Source: Candidatus Methylomirabilis limnetica (GTDB lineage Bacteria; Methylomirabilota; Methylomirabilia; Methylomirabilales; Methylomirabilaceae). Taken from it: DNA of 32,000 nt. The position numbers were made by a program, and so were the translations under genes. The stretch covers positions 150,001 to 182,000 of the forward strand of contig NZ_NVQC01000017.1 of NCBI RefSeq assembly GCF_003044035.1, in the 5' to 3' direction. Below, in pieces: positions 4,396 to 32,000 of this stretch; the stretch's first letter is position 1, and every line of letters begins with the position of its first letter. The notes below the pieces were generated by a model that worked only from the letters and a program-made list of their open reading frames with translations, made no database searches and had not been told where the DNA came from.

Positions 4396-4470
4396 AAAAT
4401 CCCTCCTGACCTCCCTTTGCCAAAGGGAGGATGTACCCCTCTTTGGAAAAGAGGGGCGAGGGGAGATTTT
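4396..4470. repeat. Nested GC palindrome (family A, double-core copy)
   Basis: AAAATCCCTCC tga CCTCCCTTTgccAAAGGGAGG atgta CCCCTCTTTggAAAAGAGGGG cga GGGGAGATTTT. The outer arms enclose two inner hairpins. It lies in the gap between ald and the HAD gene. Confidence 0.7.
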
Positions 4471-8346: not shown

Positions 8347-8467
8347 GGGCAGCCACAAGGGCTGCCCCTACTTCGGACTCCGCACCAAACCCTCCCTAAC
8401 CCCCCTTTGATAAAGGGGGTAGCGGGGGGATTTACCTCACACCGGGCGCAGCAAGCAGCGCCCCTAC
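8347..8467. repeat. Composite repeat module: REP-like hairpin B + family-A palindrome + REP-like hairpin C
   Basis: GGGCAGCCacaagGGCTGCCCCTAC (8347-8371), then CAAACCCTCCCtaaCCCCCCTTTgatAAAGGGGGtagcGGGGGGATTT (8387-8433), then GGGCGCagcaagcaGCGCCCCTAC (8444-8467). The same three-part module recurs at 25163-25282. Confidence 0.8.
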
Positions 8468-18282: not shown

Positions 18283-18329
18283 AAATCCCCCCAACCCCCC
18301 TTTGGTAAAGGGGGGCGAGGGGGGATTTT
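18283..18329. repeat. Nested GC palindrome (family A, archetypal copy)
   Basis: AAATCCCCCCaaCCCCCCTTTggtAAAGGGGGGcgaGGGGGGATTTT. It lies in the gap between the aminotransferase stop and the GlcE-like start. Confidence 0.85.
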
Positions 18330-19807: not shown

Positions 19808-19836
19808 AACGTACCATGCCGTCATTTCACTGTCAA
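19808..19836 (-). promoter_or_regulatory. Candidate sigma70 promoter of the aminotransferase-glcE-glcD operon
   Basis: On the minus strand: TTGACA (19836..19831), a 17-nt spacer, then TACGTT (19813..19808). Confidence 0.35.
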
Positions 19837-19920
19837 CGCGGCCTCGCGTACCGCGATAGCTCGCGCTGCGCTGCCCATATGGCTTCACGGGCCGCCTGCT
19901 TAACGGTCGATAGTTGCCTC

Positions 19921-20288
19921 ATGTAAATGTAATAAGTGTAACCTATTGTAAATACAGTGTTTTTTAACCAACAAATGATTATTTTCCCAAGCCCACAAAT
20001 GACTTGACAGTCGTGATGGAGTGGGCTAAAAGAGACGTCTCCTTAACAACGTCATGCGGGTAATTGCACATGAGACACGGTTTCCCACAGCCACCTTATC
20101 TGTCGAACTCGTCACGCGTCGGGGACGATGGGCCTCTTCATGAGGCGCGACAAGCATTTACGCCTTATCCACACCTGTGGATAACCCTGTGGATAATGGA
20201 AACCCCATCTGGCAAAGACTCTATAGGAATCGTACAGCATTTTCTTAATAGATTCAACAGGTTAGATAGGGAGGCTTCCTGTGGATAA
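19921..20288. other. Candidate oriC / dnaA regulatory region (AT-rich tract plus DnaA-box cluster)
   Basis: The stretch 19921-19990 is AT-rich (atgtaaatgtaataagtgtaacctattgtaaatacagtgttttttaaccaacaaatgattatttt) in an otherwise GC-rich window. Four perfect TTATCCACA boxes are present: 20165-20173 (+), 20176-20184 (-), 20188-20196 (-) and 20280-20288 (-). The last overlaps the dnaA GTG start. Confidence 0.65.
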
Positions 20289-21666
20289 CAATGGGCACGG
20301 TGCGCAGGTGAATCCGATCAATTCGTCCACCAGGGCACATGAGATCTGGCAAGAGGCCCTCTCAATCATCCAGGGTAAGGTCACACGCCAAAGCTTCGAC
20401 AATTGGTTTCGCCCCCTGGCCCTGGAGTCGTTGGAAGACTCATGCGTCACGGTTCAGCTCCCGAATCAATTCTTTAAGGAGTGGTTTGAGGACCACCATC
20501 TAACTGTACTCAAATCGGTACTCGCGGATCTGATGTTCGCCAGCGTCGAGGTCATCCTCCGCATTGCTGAGCCAGGGGGGCAGGGCGAGCCAGATGTAAA
20601 ACCCGAACCTGCCGTCAGACGACCAGTGAAGCGATTCCGGAACGAATCTGCAGTCCTCAACCCGAAGTATGTCTTCGAGAACTTCGTCGTAGGGAGCTCC
20701 AACCAGTTCGCCCACGCCGGCTGTCTGGCCGTGGCAGAGCAGCTTTCGAAAGCGTACAATCCGCTCTTTATCTATGGGGGCGTTGGCTTAGGGAAGACTC
20801 ACCTGCTCCATGCCATCGGCCACCTGGCCCTCAAGCGAAATAATAGGCTCAGGCTTGCCTATGTCTCATCCGAGAAGTTTACGAACGACCTGATTAATGC
20901 CATCCGTTTCGATTCCACTGGTGAGTTCCGCAACCGCTACCGTAGCCTGGACCTGCTTCTCATCGACGATATCCAGTTTATCGCCGGCAAAGAGCGGACC
21001 CAGGAGGAGTTCTTCCATACCTTTAATGATCTGTACGACTCCTCCAAGCAGATCGTGGTCACCTCTGACAGCCTCCCGCGCGAGATCCCCACGCTGGAGG
21101 AGCGGCTACGTTCCCGGTTCGAGTGGGGTCTGATCGCTGACATCCAGTTGCCGGACCTCGAGACCAAGGCTGCCATCCTTCGGAAAAAGGCGCAGGCGGA
21201 TGGCGCGCGGATCCCTGATGATGTCTCACTCTTTATCGCCAAGAACGTGCAGTCAAGTATCCGGGAACTGGAAGGCTCGTTGGTCCGCCTCATCGCCTAC
21301 GCCTCGCTGACGGGCCGCGACATCACCTTAGAGCTCGCCCAGGAGACACTGAAGGAACTGAACGCCGAGCGGGCCAAGGTCATCACGCTGACCGCCATAC
21401 AGCACACGGTGGCCGACTTCTATCGCGTCAAGGTCGAGGATCTCAAATCCAAGGGCAGAAACCAGGGTGTGGTTCTGCCGCGCCAGGTCGCCATGTACCT
21501 CAGTCGAACACTCACCGCCTCCTCGCTGCCGGTTATCGGCGAGGCGTTCGGCGGAAAGGACCATACGACAGTGATCCACTCCTGCGAGAAGATCAAGCGG
21601 AGGCTCGCAACGGATGAGGCATTCCGGCGACAAATCGACTCCCTCTCCCAAACGATCACCTCTTAG
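20281..21666 (+). CDS. dnaA: Chromosomal replication initiator protein DnaA
   Basis: GTG start with GGGAGG 6 nt upstream. Present are the AAA+ Walker A (GGVGLGKTHLL), Walker B (LLLIDDIQF), sensor/box VII (VVTSD) and the C-terminal DnaA-box binding signature (ARQVAMYLSRTLT...IGEAFGGKDHTTVIHS). Confidence 0.95.
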   Translation: MDNNGHGAQVNPINSSTRAHEIWQEALSIIQGKVTRQSFDNWFRPLALESLEDSCVTVQLPNQFFKEWFEDHHLTVLKSVLADLMFASVEVILRIAEPGGQGEPDVKPEPAVRRPVKRFRNESAVLNPKYVFENFVVGSSNQFAHAGCLAVAEQLSKAYNPLFIYGGVGLGKTHLLHAIGHLALKRNNRLRLAYVSSEKFTNDLINAIRFDSTGEFRNRYRSLDLLLIDDIQFIAGKERTQEEFFHTFNDLYDSSKQIVVTSDSLPREIPTLEERLRSRFEWGLIADIQLPDLETKAAILRKKAQADGARIPDDVSLFIAKNVQSSIRELEGSLVRLIAYASLTGRDITLELAQETLKELNAERAKVITLTAIQHTVADFYRVKVEDLKSKGRNQGVVLPRQVAMYLSRTLTASSLPVIGEAFGGKDHTTVIHSCEKIKRRLATDEAFRRQIDSLSQTITS

Positions 21667-22886: not shown

Positions 22887-22960
22887 AAAACCCCCACCCC
22901 CCCCTTTACAAAAGGGGGGGGTGGGGGTTTTGAATGTAGGGGCAGCCCTCGTGGCTGCCC
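22887..22960. repeat. Family-A palindrome plus inverted REP-like hairpin B between convergent genes (possible bidirectional terminator)
   Basis: CAAAACCCCCAcCCCCCCCTTTacaAAAGGGGGGGGtGGGGGTTTTG (22887-22932), followed by GTAGGGGCAGCCctcgtGGCTGCCC (22936-22960). Confidence 0.75.
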
Positions 22961-25114: not shown

Positions 25115-25282
25115 CAAACCCCCCTCACCCCCCTTTAAAGGGGGGTGACTTGAGGGTACTGAGGGCAGCCACAAGGGCTGCCCCTACACCCCGCGCTGCA
25201 CTAAATCTTTCCGTTCCCCCCTTTGATAAAGGGGGGTGAGGGGGGTTTACTCCATGCTGGGCGCAGCAAGCAGCGCCCCTAC
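25115..25282. repeat. Repeat cluster: half family-A palindrome followed by a second copy of the B + A + C module
   Basis: The half palindrome is CAAACCCCCCtcaCCCCCCTTTAAAGGGGGG (25115-25147). Hairpin B spans 25163-25187, TCCCCCCTTTgatAAAGGGGGGtgaGGGGGGTTTA spans 25215-25249, and hairpin C spans 25259-25282. Confidence 0.85.
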
Positions 25283-28414: not shown

Positions 28415-28564
28415 CTACTGTTTCGAAATGTATTTCTCCGGCGACTGCTCGAAGGCTCGTTTGCAGCCTACAGCGCAGAAATAGTAGGTCACCCCTTGAT
28501 AGACGGCTGTGGCCGCCGCCCGCTTTTCATCCACCATCATCTCACATACGGGATCTTTCGACAT
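28415..28564 (-). CDS. 49-aa YHS/TRASH-domain metal-binding protein
   Basis: [49 protein letters not shown], preceded by GGAGGGGGAG. It is below the ORF-track size cutoff. It parallels the first 46 aa of CopA in this window (DPICGMDV...[19 protein letters not shown]). Confidence 0.8.
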   Translation of the reverse strand: MSKDPVCEMMVDEKRAAATAVYQGVTYYFCAVGCKRAFEQSPEKYISKQ

Positions 28565-28578
28565 CGCTCCCCCTCCGC

Positions 28579-29016
28579 TCACCTTGCGTATTTTCGGTCA
28601 ATTGCCGTCTTGATCTCTGCAACTGTCTTTCCCTGCTTGTGCATGGCATACGCATCCAGCGTAATGTCTTGGCACATCCCTCACCCGTCGGCATGCCGAT
28701 CCGCGTAACAATCGAGGTTGCTTTGATGGTTGGCCGACGCGACGCAACCGCAATAGCAGGGCATCTGCTCGATCAGTTCCGGCGCTTCCTTGGCGATCCG
28801 ATAGGCCTGCGCTGTTTTTCCACTGAACAGCGCAGGTGACGGCGTAACCGGCCGCGGCCGTTTCGGAATTACCTGAAGCACGCTACCGGCGCCTTCTGCT
28901 CTCCTCACGCCCGGGCGCCAACCAACGTCAAGCCCGACGAATAGGCCGACCAGGCCTCCGCCAAGGATCTTGAGAACCGCTCGTCGGTCAGACTGCTCTC
29001 CTTCATCCCGTTCCAT
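28579..29016 (-). CDS. Tat-signal PCYCGC-domain protein with in-frame TGA (candidate selenocysteine) in a U-x-x-C motif
   Basis: The track ORF (28681-29016) stops at TGA 28683..28681. Read-through in the same frame gives ...QMPCYCGCVASANHQSNLDCYADRHADG[U]GMCQDITLDAYAMHKQGKTVAEIKTAIDRKYAR*. The N-terminus has a twin-arginine motif (SDRRAVLKILGGGLVGL). The extension restores the conserved C-terminal half of the PCYCGC family. Confidence 0.7.
28647..28666 (-). promoter_or_regulatory. Candidate SECIS hairpin for the PCYCGC gene
   Basis: The mRNA segment CAUUACGC-UGGAU-GCGUAUG starts 14 nt after the UGA. It forms a 5-bp plus 2-bp stem with one bulged U, and the pentaloop contains GG. Folded by eye only. 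Confidence 0.35.
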
Positions 29017-29039
29017 ACGCCTTCACCCTCCTCCCTTGT

Positions 29040-29307: not shown

Positions 29308-31917
29308 CTATGAGGACGCCGGCACGGCTGTGGGCTGAAATCTCCGTAAGCGGAGGGCATTGCTGACCACGGTGACCGAGGAGAGCGCCATGGCTGCGCC
29401 GGCCAGGACCGGACTCAGCATCACCCCCCACAACGGGTACAGGACGCCGGCGGCCACCGGGATCAGGACCACATTATAGGCAAATGCCCAAAACAGGTTC
29501 TGCTTGATGTTTCGCATCGTCAATCTACTTAACTGTAGCGCTGTCACGACGCTTCGCAGATCGCCCCCGATCAGGGTGATATCGGCCGCTTCCATCGCCA
29601 CATCGGTCCCTGTTCCGATGGCGATCCCGACATCGGCCTGGGCCAGGGCGGGGGCGTCATTGATCCCATCGCCCACCATGGCCACCAGCTTCCCCTGCTC
29701 CTGGAGCCTGCGAACTTCCAGCGCCTTATGTTCCGGCAGAACCTCCGCCATGATCCGGTCGATTCCGACCTGCCTGGCGATAGCCTCGGCGGTCCGACGG
29801 GTATCTCCGGTGATCACGGCCACCTCAATGCCCAGGTGACGTATGGCAACTACGGCCGACTGCGAATACGGCTTCACGACGTCGGCCACAGCCACAATGC
29901 CGAGGAGCCGGGCATCGGCGGCGACGAACATCGACGTCTTCCCCTCCCCCGAGAGCGCTTCCGCCTGCTCGCCCATCCCGGCGAGGTCAATCCCGCGCTC
30001 CCGCATCAGAGCGATATTGCCAAGGAGAATCTCCCGCCCCTCTACGACGGCCCTGATCCCATATCCAGGGATCGCCTTAAACTCCTGCGGCTCGGCCACG
30101 TCGAGCCCCTTTGCCTTGGCGTAATCAATGATCGCCTGTCCAAGCGGGTGCTCGGAGCCTTGTTCCGCCGATGCCGCAAGCCGAAGTAGCTCCCGCTCAT
30201 CCGGGCTCAGCGATAAGTTTCGAGTTTCGGGTTTCGGGTTTCTGGTCAAATTCGATGAAGAACTCGAAACTCGAAACTCGAAACTCGAAACAACATCCGT
30301 AACTACCGGCTGGCCGACGGTCAGCGTACCAGTCTTATCGAAAATGATCACGTTCACCTGGTAGGCTCGTTCAAGGCTCTCGGCGTTCTTGATCAGAATA
30401 CCGTACTCTGCCCCCTTCCCGATTCCGACCATAATCGACGTGGGCGTCGCGAGACCCAGGGCACAGGGGCAGGCGATCACCAGCACGGCCACGAAGTTCG
30501 AGAGGGCAACGAGAAACGCCTGCTCACCCCCGAGCAGCAGCCAGACCCCGAAGGTCACGACCGCGATAACCAGGACGATCGGCACAAAGACCCCGGCGAT
30601 CTTATCGACCAGTCGCTGGATGGGCGCCTTTGATCCCTGGGCCTGCTCGACCAATCGGACGATCTGGGCGAGGACGGTCTCTTGTCCCACCTTGGTCGCC
30701 TCGAACTTGAAGCTGCCCATCTTATTCATCGTTGCGCCAACCACCTGATCGCCCGGCCCCTTCTCCACAGGGAGGCTCTCCCCGGTCAGCATCGATTCAT
30801 CAAGCGCCGATCGACCCTCGCGGATAATCCCGTCCACCGGCACCTTCTCCCCCGGCCTGACCAATACCAGGTCGCCGGCCCTAACCTCCTCCACCGGGAT
30901 GTCTTGCGCGAGGTCCCCACGGATTACCCGAGCGGTCTTGGCCCGAAGTCCCATCAGTGTCTTAATCGCCTCAGAGGTCCGACCCTTCGCCTTGGCCTCA
31001 AGCCACCTTCCCATGACGATCAGGGTCATGAGGATGCTCGCTGTGTCGTAGTAGGTCATCGCCTCCATCCCCGTCGGAGCGATGGCCGCAGGGAAGAAGG
31101 TGAGCGCCGCACTGTACAGGTAGGCCGCATTCGTCCCGATCGACACCAGGGTGTTCATATCGGCGGTTCGGTGTTTCAGACTCATCCAGAACCCTCGATG
31201 GAACTGCCAGCCGACCCAGAACTGTACTGGTGTGGTAAGAACAAAGAGCAGGTTGGGGTTGGCGAGCAGCGAAGGCGCCCACGGGAACCAGTCCGGAAAA
31301 CTGCCAAGCAGGATGGGGACGCTCAGGGCCGCCCCAACCAGAAATCTGGTCCGAAGCAGGCGGATCTCCGCATCTGCTGTCGCCTTCTCCTGATCGGGCG
31401 TTGGGACAGCATCCATGTCCGGGACAACATACCCGGCCGCTTCGATTGAGTTGCGCAGATCAGCCGGCTGGGTGACGGCGTCAAGGTAGGTCACGCTCGC
31501 CCGCTCCGTTGCGAAGTTGACGGAGGCGGAGACCACCCCCGGGACTTCCAGCAACGTCTGCTCGATGCGCTGCACGCACGAGGCGCAAGACATCCCCCGG
31601 ATCGGGATCTCGACTACCCTCGTGTTCGCACGTTGCACCTCGGGCGCTACACTCAAAACCCCCCTTTGCCCCCCTTTGCTAAAGGGGGGGGCAGGTGGTT
31701 TTGGACTTTGCCCCTCTGCCTCTGCACGCCCTATCCCCATATTCCCCCCTTTCGTAAAGGGGGGGTGGGGGGGTTTAGTCACATACTGCTCCGGCGACTT
31801 GTCGAAGGCTTCTTTACAGCCCACCGCGCAGAAATAGTACTCTACCCCTCGGTAGCGGCTCGTGCCTGCGGCCTCCTCGGGGAGCACATCCATACCACAA
31901 ATCGGGTCTCTTGCCAT
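29308..31917 (-). CDS. copA: Copper-translocating P1B-type ATPase with N-terminal YHS/TRASH and HMA domains
   Basis: Domain and motif evidence: the YHS domain (DPICGMDV...[19 protein letters not shown]), the HMA motif GMSCASC, TGES, the CPC motif ([11 protein letters not shown]), DKTGTLT, SEHPLG and [10 protein letters not shown]. Confidence 0.93.
30217..30291. repeat. Inverted repeat of 7-nt units (GTTTCGR)4 ... (CTCGAAA)4 lying in frame inside copA
   Basis: GTTTCGAGTTTCGGGTTTCGGGTTTCTGG, then a 17-nt spacer, then CTCGAAACTCGAAACTCGAAACTCGAAAC. It is translated as [25 protein letters not shown]. Confidence 0.85.
31654..31777. repeat. Two family-A GC palindromes lying in frame inside copA
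   Basis: The two copies are CAAAACCCCCCTTTGCCCCCCTTTgctAAAGGGGGGGGcaGGTGGTTTTGG (31654-31703) and TCCCCCCTTTcgtAAAGGGGGGGtGGGGGGGTTTA (31743-31777). They are translated as [11 protein letters not shown]...[13 protein letters not shown] in the linker between the YHS and HMA domains. Confidence 0.85.
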
Positions 31918-32000
31918 TACCAGCTTCCCAACTCTTGGCGTCTGCCGCTGAAGCCTCCTCGACCGGCCAAAAGATCAAACAGCATGACAATGGAACGAGG
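31917..32000 (-). CDS. 3' end of an unidentified upstream gene, translationally coupled to copA
   Basis: The minus-strand frame reads ...[27 protein letters not shown], and its TAA shares one base with the copA ATG (TAATG). It is too short to identify. Confidence 0.3.

Follow-up and report, generated by a model that had tools for sequence, protein, structure and literature searches.

The locus described here raises the question of whether an in-frame TGA ends a small gene or is read as selenocysteine (Sec) within a longer one. It lies in a 32,000-nucleotide stretch of Candidatus Methylomirabilis limnetica (contig NZ_NVQC01000017.1, positions 150,001 to 182,000), which is called the window below and supplies the coordinates used. 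On the minus strand of the window, an open reading frame (ORF) at 29016..28681 encodes 111 residues of a PCYCGC-domain protein, ending in ...DCYADRHADG (PCYCGCVASANHQSNLDCYADRHADG) and then TGA at 28683..28681. The frame continues past this TGA for 33 codons, GMCQDITLDAYAMHKQGKTVAEIKTAIDRKYAR, up to a second TGA at 28581..28579. A first-pass annotation of the sequence had described both the truncated ORF and the read-through product, and it had proposed Sec at the internal TGA. Translation recovers both products at these positions. The codon column in relatives, the coding character of the downstream segment, a hairpin after the TGA and the family assignment suggest that TGA 28683..28681 is very probably a selenocysteine codon that replaces the first Cys of a CxxC motif.

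Read through, the gene occupies 28579..29016 on the minus strand and has 145 codons plus a stop, with Sec predicted at codon 112. The full product would be MERDEG...DRHADG-U-GMCQDITLDAYAMHKQGKTVAEIKTAIDRKYAR, and the residues around Sec112 would be HADG-U-GMCQDITLDAYAMHK. The UGA codon (28681..28683, minus strand) takes position 1 of a U-G-M-C (UxxC) motif. A Shine-Dalgarno-like sequence read from the window, GGGAGGAGGG (29026..29035, minus strand), lies 9 nucleotides (nt) upstream of ATG 29016. The family signature PCYCGC forms residues 86-91 (28744..28761, minus strand) and consists of columns that are invariant in alignments A1 and A3, as are H97, C103 and H108 downstream of it.

Relatives of the gene carry either TGA or a cysteine codon at the position in question. 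The comparison set comprises 90 homologous genes, that is, the window gene and 89 loci fetched from genomes and metagenomes. The column of the TGA holds TGA in 53 of these genes, TGC in 23 and TGT in 14, while TAA and TAG do not occur. Thus the aligned Cys homologs place Cys where the first-pass annotation had looked for it, and both versions (37 Cys, 53 TGA) are present in the set. Past the TGA, the frame stays open in every case, for 31 to 44 codons, and remains homologous, and the real terminators are a mixture of TAA, TAG and TGA, the last being that of the window gene (28579..28581, minus strand). About 45 clusters of close relatives were found by protein search, several of them labelled Methylomirabilis, NC10 or Methylomirabilota. 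All are called at 105-120 residues and end in ...DRHA(D/F/V/A)(G/T), at the position just ahead of the TGA column. More distant, full-length homologs read H-x3-C-x-x-C, the first Cys of which falls exactly in the TGA column, and go on to a QGK..EI(K/R)..ID..Y tail. The TGA forms are found in the Methylomirabilis clade, in a large clade with a ...YEKKWPL tail, in a small ...CRAIALEA clade and in one Anaerolineales metagenome-assembled genome (MAG; locus L007), and two further ones (L070 and L071) are nested among Cys forms. This distribution over several subclades and among Cys forms implies that Cys and Sec have been exchanged repeatedly.

Profile matches place the protein in a known family and improve when the TGA is read through. 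With the Pfam profile PCYCGC (PF13798), which has a gathering threshold of 25 bits, the truncated ORF scores 41.4 bits (profile positions 54-95). Reading the TGA as Cys gives 57.3 bits and carries the match to profile position 141 of 153, so that both products are above the threshold. This gain and the tail shared with the Cys homologs bear out the family match that had been proposed. NF041379 ("OS_HP4_CYCXC - CYCXC family (seleno)protein") is an equivalog model in NCBIfam release 20 with a cut-off of 90 bits. The read-through product, with U read as C, passes it with 122.2 bits over profile positions 2-89 of 90, while the truncated ORF reaches 75.7 bits and falls below the cut-off. The features that mark the family are found in the window protein, namely the CYCxC signature (PCYCGC at residues 86-91) and a single Sec in a UxxC motif that is aligned with the Cys of homologs.

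The family is already catalogued as a selenoprotein family. The gene had been put forward as a candidate new selenoprotein on the grounds that no Sec-containing PCYCGC protein had been described. This claim fails because a 2026 review has an entry "CYCXC family protein (OS_HP4), PF13798, UxxC" and because NF041379 is a curated model of the same family. Judged from these matches, the window gene is a member of the CYCXC / OS_HP4 selenoprotein family (PF13798, NF041379). A full-length match, the CYCGC signature, one Sec in UxxC and the existence of Cys-containing homologs are common to family and window protein, and there is no defining difference between them. The review entry gives credit to Zhang and Gladyshev 2007, where Table 2 of the main text has OS_HP1-3 only. 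The same review mentions a Methylomirabilota MAG predicted to have 63 selenoprotein genes, and in this sense Sec use in the phylum is documented. Full-text literature searches for PCYCGC and CYCXC returned no paper on function or on a copper link, and the literature searched does not name Methylomirabilis in connection with this family. Only the consistent link of the CYCXC family to copper-handling genes is possibly new.

The UGA is followed by a hairpin of the kind that directs Sec insertion in bacteria, the bacterial selenocysteine insertion sequence (bSECIS). The hairpin occupies 28647..28666 on the minus strand and is 20 nt long, CAU(U)ACGC-UGGAU-GCGUAUG, with a bulged U and the 5' arm CAUUACGC. 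It lies 14-33 nt downstream of the UGA, inside the coding sequence, and its apical loop UGGAU (28658..28654) starts 22 nt after the UGA. The published bSECIS model (PMC13188914) has a loop of 3-9 nt, an upper stem of 4-16 base pairs (bp), G in the first two loop positions, a UGA-loop spacing of 16-37 nt and a minimum free energy of -7.5 kcal/mol or lower. The window hairpin agrees with the first four of these, having a 5-nt loop, G at loop position 2, 5 contiguous bp (7 across the bulge) and a spacing of 22 nt. Distance from the UGA, bulged U and a stem of 5-7 bp are thus shared with the consensus bSECIS of that model. The E. coli fdhF element likewise follows the UGA closely as a stem-loop within the coding sequence and has a 5-nt loop with G at position 2, but the window hairpin is shorter and weaker.

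The hairpin is conserved in genes with UGA and not in genes with Cys at the same position. Among the distinct forms used for these counts (43 Sec, 36 Cys), a qualifying hairpin is present in 42 of the 43 Sec forms with the spacing fixed at 21-23 nt, while only 3 of the 36 Cys forms have a hairpin with a free energy of -4 or lower, at scattered positions. In an alignment of 38 Sec forms, 91% of cells are paired in the helix, whereas controls made by sliding the 3' partners give 4.5-57%. Compensatory changes are seen at one pair, where A-U has become G-C twice and U-A once, and at another, where U-A has become C-G twice. Divergent clades have other hairpin sequences at the same place, such as CAUCACG-CGUGA-CGUGAUG (L007, L070, L071), UCUCGC-UGGAC-GCGAGA (L046) and UCGCGC-UGGAG-GCGCGA (L053). 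The contrast at synonymous sites is the cleanest hairpin result. In the seven hairpin codons, synonymous-codon identity, scored where two sequences agree in the amino acid, reaches 0.92 among Sec forms, compared with 0.51-0.53 elsewhere in the same genes and 0.50 in the same seven codons of Cys forms. The coding sequence is therefore under an additional, RNA-level constraint, but only in genes whose upstream codon is UGA. The SECIS candidate of the first-pass annotation, a 20-nt hairpin with a bulged U at 28666..28647, is present as described and behaves in comparison like a bacterial SECIS. A scan of the window with Rfam at gathering thresholds gave no match; we know of no bacterial SECIS family in Rfam, so this result says little.

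Several observations weigh against Sec at this position. The minimal hairpin has a folding energy of -6.0 to -6.2 kcal/mol, which misses the limit of the bSECIS model, and the energy is low enough only with flanking pairs counted, as in a 54-nt context (-13.4 kcal/mol). That context folds no better than shuffled sequences (z = -0.21); single-sequence thermodynamics was dropped as uninformative on this account, and the argument is built on the comparative tests. There are few strictly compensatory changes, and the evidence for the helix is largely conservation rather than covariation. No selA, selB, selD or tRNA-Sec gene was seen in the 32-kb window or the fetched loci, a dedicated tRNA-Sec search of the window and 22 loci found none, and the literature on Sec machinery in Methylomirabilis yielded an indirect mention only.

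The sequence-based character of the support and the machinery not seen in the window or fetched loci would also fit insertion of a standard amino acid at the UGA, whether by near-cognate suppression with Trp, Cys or Arg or through a reassigned code. This is nevertheless very unlikely, because TGA is the ordinary stop of 8 of the 26 other window genes, as expected of the standard code, and also terminates the selenoprotein gene. All homologs without TGA have Cys in the column, and exchange between Cys and UGA is a hallmark of Sec. The hairpin, its G-containing loop and the canonical bSECIS distance are conserved only in the UGA forms, and the family is curated as a selenoprotein.

Still less credit can be given to the TGA as a genuine stop, with a functional product of 111 residues and a pseudogene remnant or a sequencing or assembly error downstream. 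The same TGA is retained in the 53 genes of several clades while the true stops vary. The downstream codons are not only open but conserved, and in the read-through segment outside the hairpin third codon positions differ 1.73 times as often between pairs as positions 1 and 2, an excess that indicates purifying selection on a translated segment. An identical ORF recurs on 10 contigs that stem from several independent samples, showing that the TGA is no assembly error. Gene callers in all source databases end NC10-type proteins at the TGA, and the truncated ORF by itself is still above the Pfam threshold, but it remains under the NF041379 cut-off; in effect the comparative data already refute a genuine stop. 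Two separate genes, the 111-residue protein and a 32-residue peptide started at ATG 28677, two codons past the TGA, are no more probable, for although such an ORF (28579..28677) exists in the window and 12 of the 43 Sec forms have a possible start within three codons after the TGA, the other 31 have none, ATG 28677 is without a ribosome-binding site, and the Cys homologs are single continuous proteins in which the segment belongs to the same domain.

The case for Sec does not depend on a second example within the window. The first-pass annotation had counted another independent TGA-at-Cys there as an argument against a random nonsense mutation. This argument is unnecessary because the comparative data suffice, and the second example could not be reproduced in three scans, none of which gave another credible case. 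A scan of window ORFs bounded by TAA or TAG and containing an internal TGA, with a codon-usage filter based on 19 window genes, left the target as the only one that codes on both sides of the TGA with a Cys nearby. A scan of the window for CxxU and UxxC contexts outside known genes gave no second case. The gene at the left edge of the window is an intact aldehyde:ferredoxin oxidoreductase gene without TGA.

Reading the TGA as Sec has consequences for database annotation. Among the database entries P0001-P0044, the NC10-type members all stop at the Sec codon and are 105-120 residues long, as against about 140-155. The deposited NC10-type proteins would thus lose 34 C-terminal residues, which include the UxxC site and the C-terminal helices. 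NF041379 would mend the truncated gene calls wherever it is applied.

Extracytoplasmic location is a trait of the family, since members of every clade have a targeting element. Most Chloroflexi- and Firmicutes-type members have a lipobox, NC10 members a twin-arginine-like motif with a hydrophobic region, and members of the ...YEKKWPL clade a strongly hydrophobic anchor. In the window protein the putative export region covers approximately residues 1-44 (28885..29016, minus strand) according to a motif scan. It comprises the twin-arginine-like DRRAVLK (RR at 28986..28981), the Gly-rich hydrophobic stretch ILGGGLVGLFVGL, and a basic c-region, WRPGVRRAEGA, that ends at AEG/A. These parts fit the pattern for twin-arginine translocation (Tat), in which S/T-R-R-x-F-L-K precedes an h-region of moderate hydrophobicity and a basic c-region. 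The RR is conserved in the NC10 clade and retained in 16 N-termini of Sec forms. The Tat-signal models of Pfam and NCBIfam did not match the window protein at E<=1. Export by Tat had been proposed from the motif SDRRAVLKI. DRRAVLKI and the hydrophobic stretch are indeed present, while the Tat route itself is a candidate assignment at the motif level only.

The gene stands among genes for copper proteins. Upstream and co-oriented is a gene for a P1B-type Cu-ATPase (CopA) of 869 residues at 29308..31917 (minus strand), which has N-terminal YHS and HMA domains. It is assigned from the matches that the identical gene in locus L090 has to Pfam YHS, HMA, E1-E2_ATPase and Hydrolase, and the synteny is conserved. 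Downstream and also co-oriented is a gene for a YHS-domain protein of 49 residues at 28415..28564 (minus strand; Pfam YHS, 53.1 bits). Its ATG (28564) follows the stop of the selenoprotein gene by 14 nt and not by the 15 nt given by the first-pass annotation, which had correctly noted a ribosome-binding sequence between the two, GGAGG. The adjacency of the selenoprotein and YHS genes is conserved in the Methylomirabilis clade.

A longer contig places the window genes in a copper cluster, as had been proposed from the CopA and YHS neighbors. The window is 100% identical to part of the 120-kb contig ENA ERZ4201064 NODE_81, from which locus L090 comes. The gene order on this contig is a CsoR-type repressor (PF02583), a flavin adenine dinucleotide (FAD)-dependent oxidoreductase, CopA (YHS, HMA and P-type ATPase), the CYCXC selenoprotein, the YHS protein, an HtrA-like protease, DUF192, two M16 peptidases and a CcdA/DsbD-type membrane protein. 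The order from CopA to CcdA is found, as far as contigs reach, in the Methylomirabilis-clade loci L001-L004 and L010-L017. The genes for the repressor and oxidoreductase (L090 5613-7100) are directly upstream of CopA and co-oriented with it, past window position 32000, so the copper cluster probably starts outside the window.

Members of the family in other clades also adjoin copper proteins. In the ...YEKKWPL Sec clade the neighbors are SCO1/SenC (107.7 bits), Caa3_CtaG (185.3 bits), a TlpA/AhpC-type thioredoxin-fold protein and a sub-threshold match to CopD. In the Chloroflexi-type clade the genes, both with Sec (L007, L070) and with Cys (L060, L067, L069), are directly upstream of a cupredoxin/COX2-like protein, and an Fer4_5 membrane protein follows this protein or is fused to it. 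The presence of copper proteins beside the gene in three different clades suggests a role in copper handling or in thiol/selenol redox chemistry. There is roughly an even chance that the CYCXC protein is an extracytoplasmic Cu(I)-handling protein, or a thiol/selenol redox protein for copper sites, belonging to the CsoR-headed copper cluster. As a separate observation, TlpA/AhpC-TSA-type thioredoxin-fold proteins adjoin CYCXC selenoproteins in two clades (L019 1969-2559, L006 3770-4372 and similar loci); an entry in the 2026 review counts Prx-like and TlpA-like proteins among the known selenoprotein families.

A structural model of a Cys homolog is compatible with such a role. The AlphaFold2 model of homolog P0047, which has the same H-x3-C-x-x-C spacing, is confident over the domain, with values of 94-98 for the predicted local distance difference test (pLDDT) as means of 10-residue blocks. 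The model is all-helical, and one long helix begins with the CxxC. This geometry is common to redox-active CxxC motifs and to those that bind Cu(I).

A mechanism can be proposed by combining these elements. UGA 28683..28681 would be read as Sec after the hairpin at 28666..28647 recruits SelB with Sec-tRNA(Sec) to the ribosome, by analogy with E. coli, and translation would then run for 33 more codons. The mature product would be a small, all-helical extracytoplasmic domain. Its ligand or redox residues may be the three Cys of PCYCGC, His97, Cys103, His108 and the U112-x-x-C115 pair, which the Cys-homolog model would place at a helix N-terminus. Together with the neighboring YHS protein, it could handle Cu(I) leaving the CopA pump or hold the copper-binding thiols of its partners in the reduced state. 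Compared with Cys, Sec would lower the pKa of the UxxC site and make it more nucleophilic.

Some results tell against this functional proposal. The structural model is that of the Cys homolog and not of the window protein. Foldseek comparison of the model with the PDB found no fold neighbor (best E = 3.6), and a search of PDB sequences with the family profile from alignment A3 had no match better than E = 0.23. For many of the loci the contig is short and the neighbors are uninformative, and the copper role is a matter of guilt by association only. It is possible, though at somewhat less than even odds, that CYCXC acts outside the cytoplasm as a selenol-based Cu(I) acceptor or copper-site thiol reductase with the CopA efflux pump and the small YHS protein of the CsoR-headed cluster, and that PF13798 as a whole is a copper-trafficking or copper-centre maturation factor. 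This tentative extension to the whole family is suggested by the recurrence of CopA/YHS, SCO1/CtaG/TlpA and cupredoxin neighbors in three unrelated clades. If it is true, the PF13798 family would receive its first functional assignment. The repeated association with copper proteins provides a concrete, testable hypothesis for CYCXC proteins. Methylomirabilis is a nitrite-dependent methane oxidizer and depends on copper enzymes, particulate methane monooxygenase among them.

Several known systems resemble the proposed one in part. The TlpA / ScoI / PcuC / CtaG system carries out periplasmic copper-site maturation, including assembly of the CuA site of cytochrome oxidase. Like CYCXC, it involves small extracytoplasmic proteins rich in Cys or with CxxC motifs, and CYCXC members adjoin SCO1/SenC, Caa3_CtaG, TlpA-like and cupredoxin/COX2-like proteins. 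However, there is no sequence or fold relationship, and the partners in the window are an efflux ATPase and YHS proteins, not assembly factors of an oxidase. Selenoproteins of the HMA type, which are linked to the handling of copper or heavy metals, have Sec for Cys in a CxxC-type motif and give a precedent for a selenol as metal ligand, but they are cytoplasmic and have a ferredoxin-like fold, in contrast to the all-helical PCYCGC domain. The HMA motif of the window CopA, GMSCASC, has Cys and not Sec. Cys-type PCYCGC proteins, for example the Parageobacillus thermoglucosidasius lipoprotein AOT13_14730 (PMC13068155), share the domain, the Cys and His residues and the extracytoplasmic location. 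They differ in having Cys for Sec and no downstream hairpin, and they are mostly lipoproteins while the window protein has a twin-arginine-like signal. The gene for AOT13_14730 adjoins a gene for an Fe3+ binding protein and not copper genes (PMC13068155).

The window has other features that are separate from the selenoprotein gene. The dnaA gene (20281..21666, plus strand) is preceded, within 19817-21666, by a gene-free gap of 460 nt that is a possible chromosomal replication origin region. Between 8464 and 15280 on the minus strand, co-oriented genes encode an extracytoplasmic function (ECF) sigma factor, an anti-sigma factor, a small periplasmic protein, a TolC-like outer-membrane protein, an HlyD-like adaptor, and a MacB-type ATP-binding cassette (ABC) ATPase and permease. 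Assigned by eye from ORF translations, this cluster looks like an envelope-stress-controlled efflux system. A palindromic element that resembles repetitive extragenic palindromic (REP) sequences, CCCCCCTTT-NNN-AAAGGGGG, occurs at seven sites in the window (4410-4430, 8400-8420, 18295-18315, 22899-22919, 25216-25236, 31669-31689 and 31744-31764), and its pattern gives 25 matches over both strands and registers where 0.06 are expected. Five of the sites are intergenic. The remaining two are within the CopA ORF, where they encode, in frame, ...PPFTKGG... and ...PPFSKGG... in the linker that joins the YHS domain to the HMA domain.

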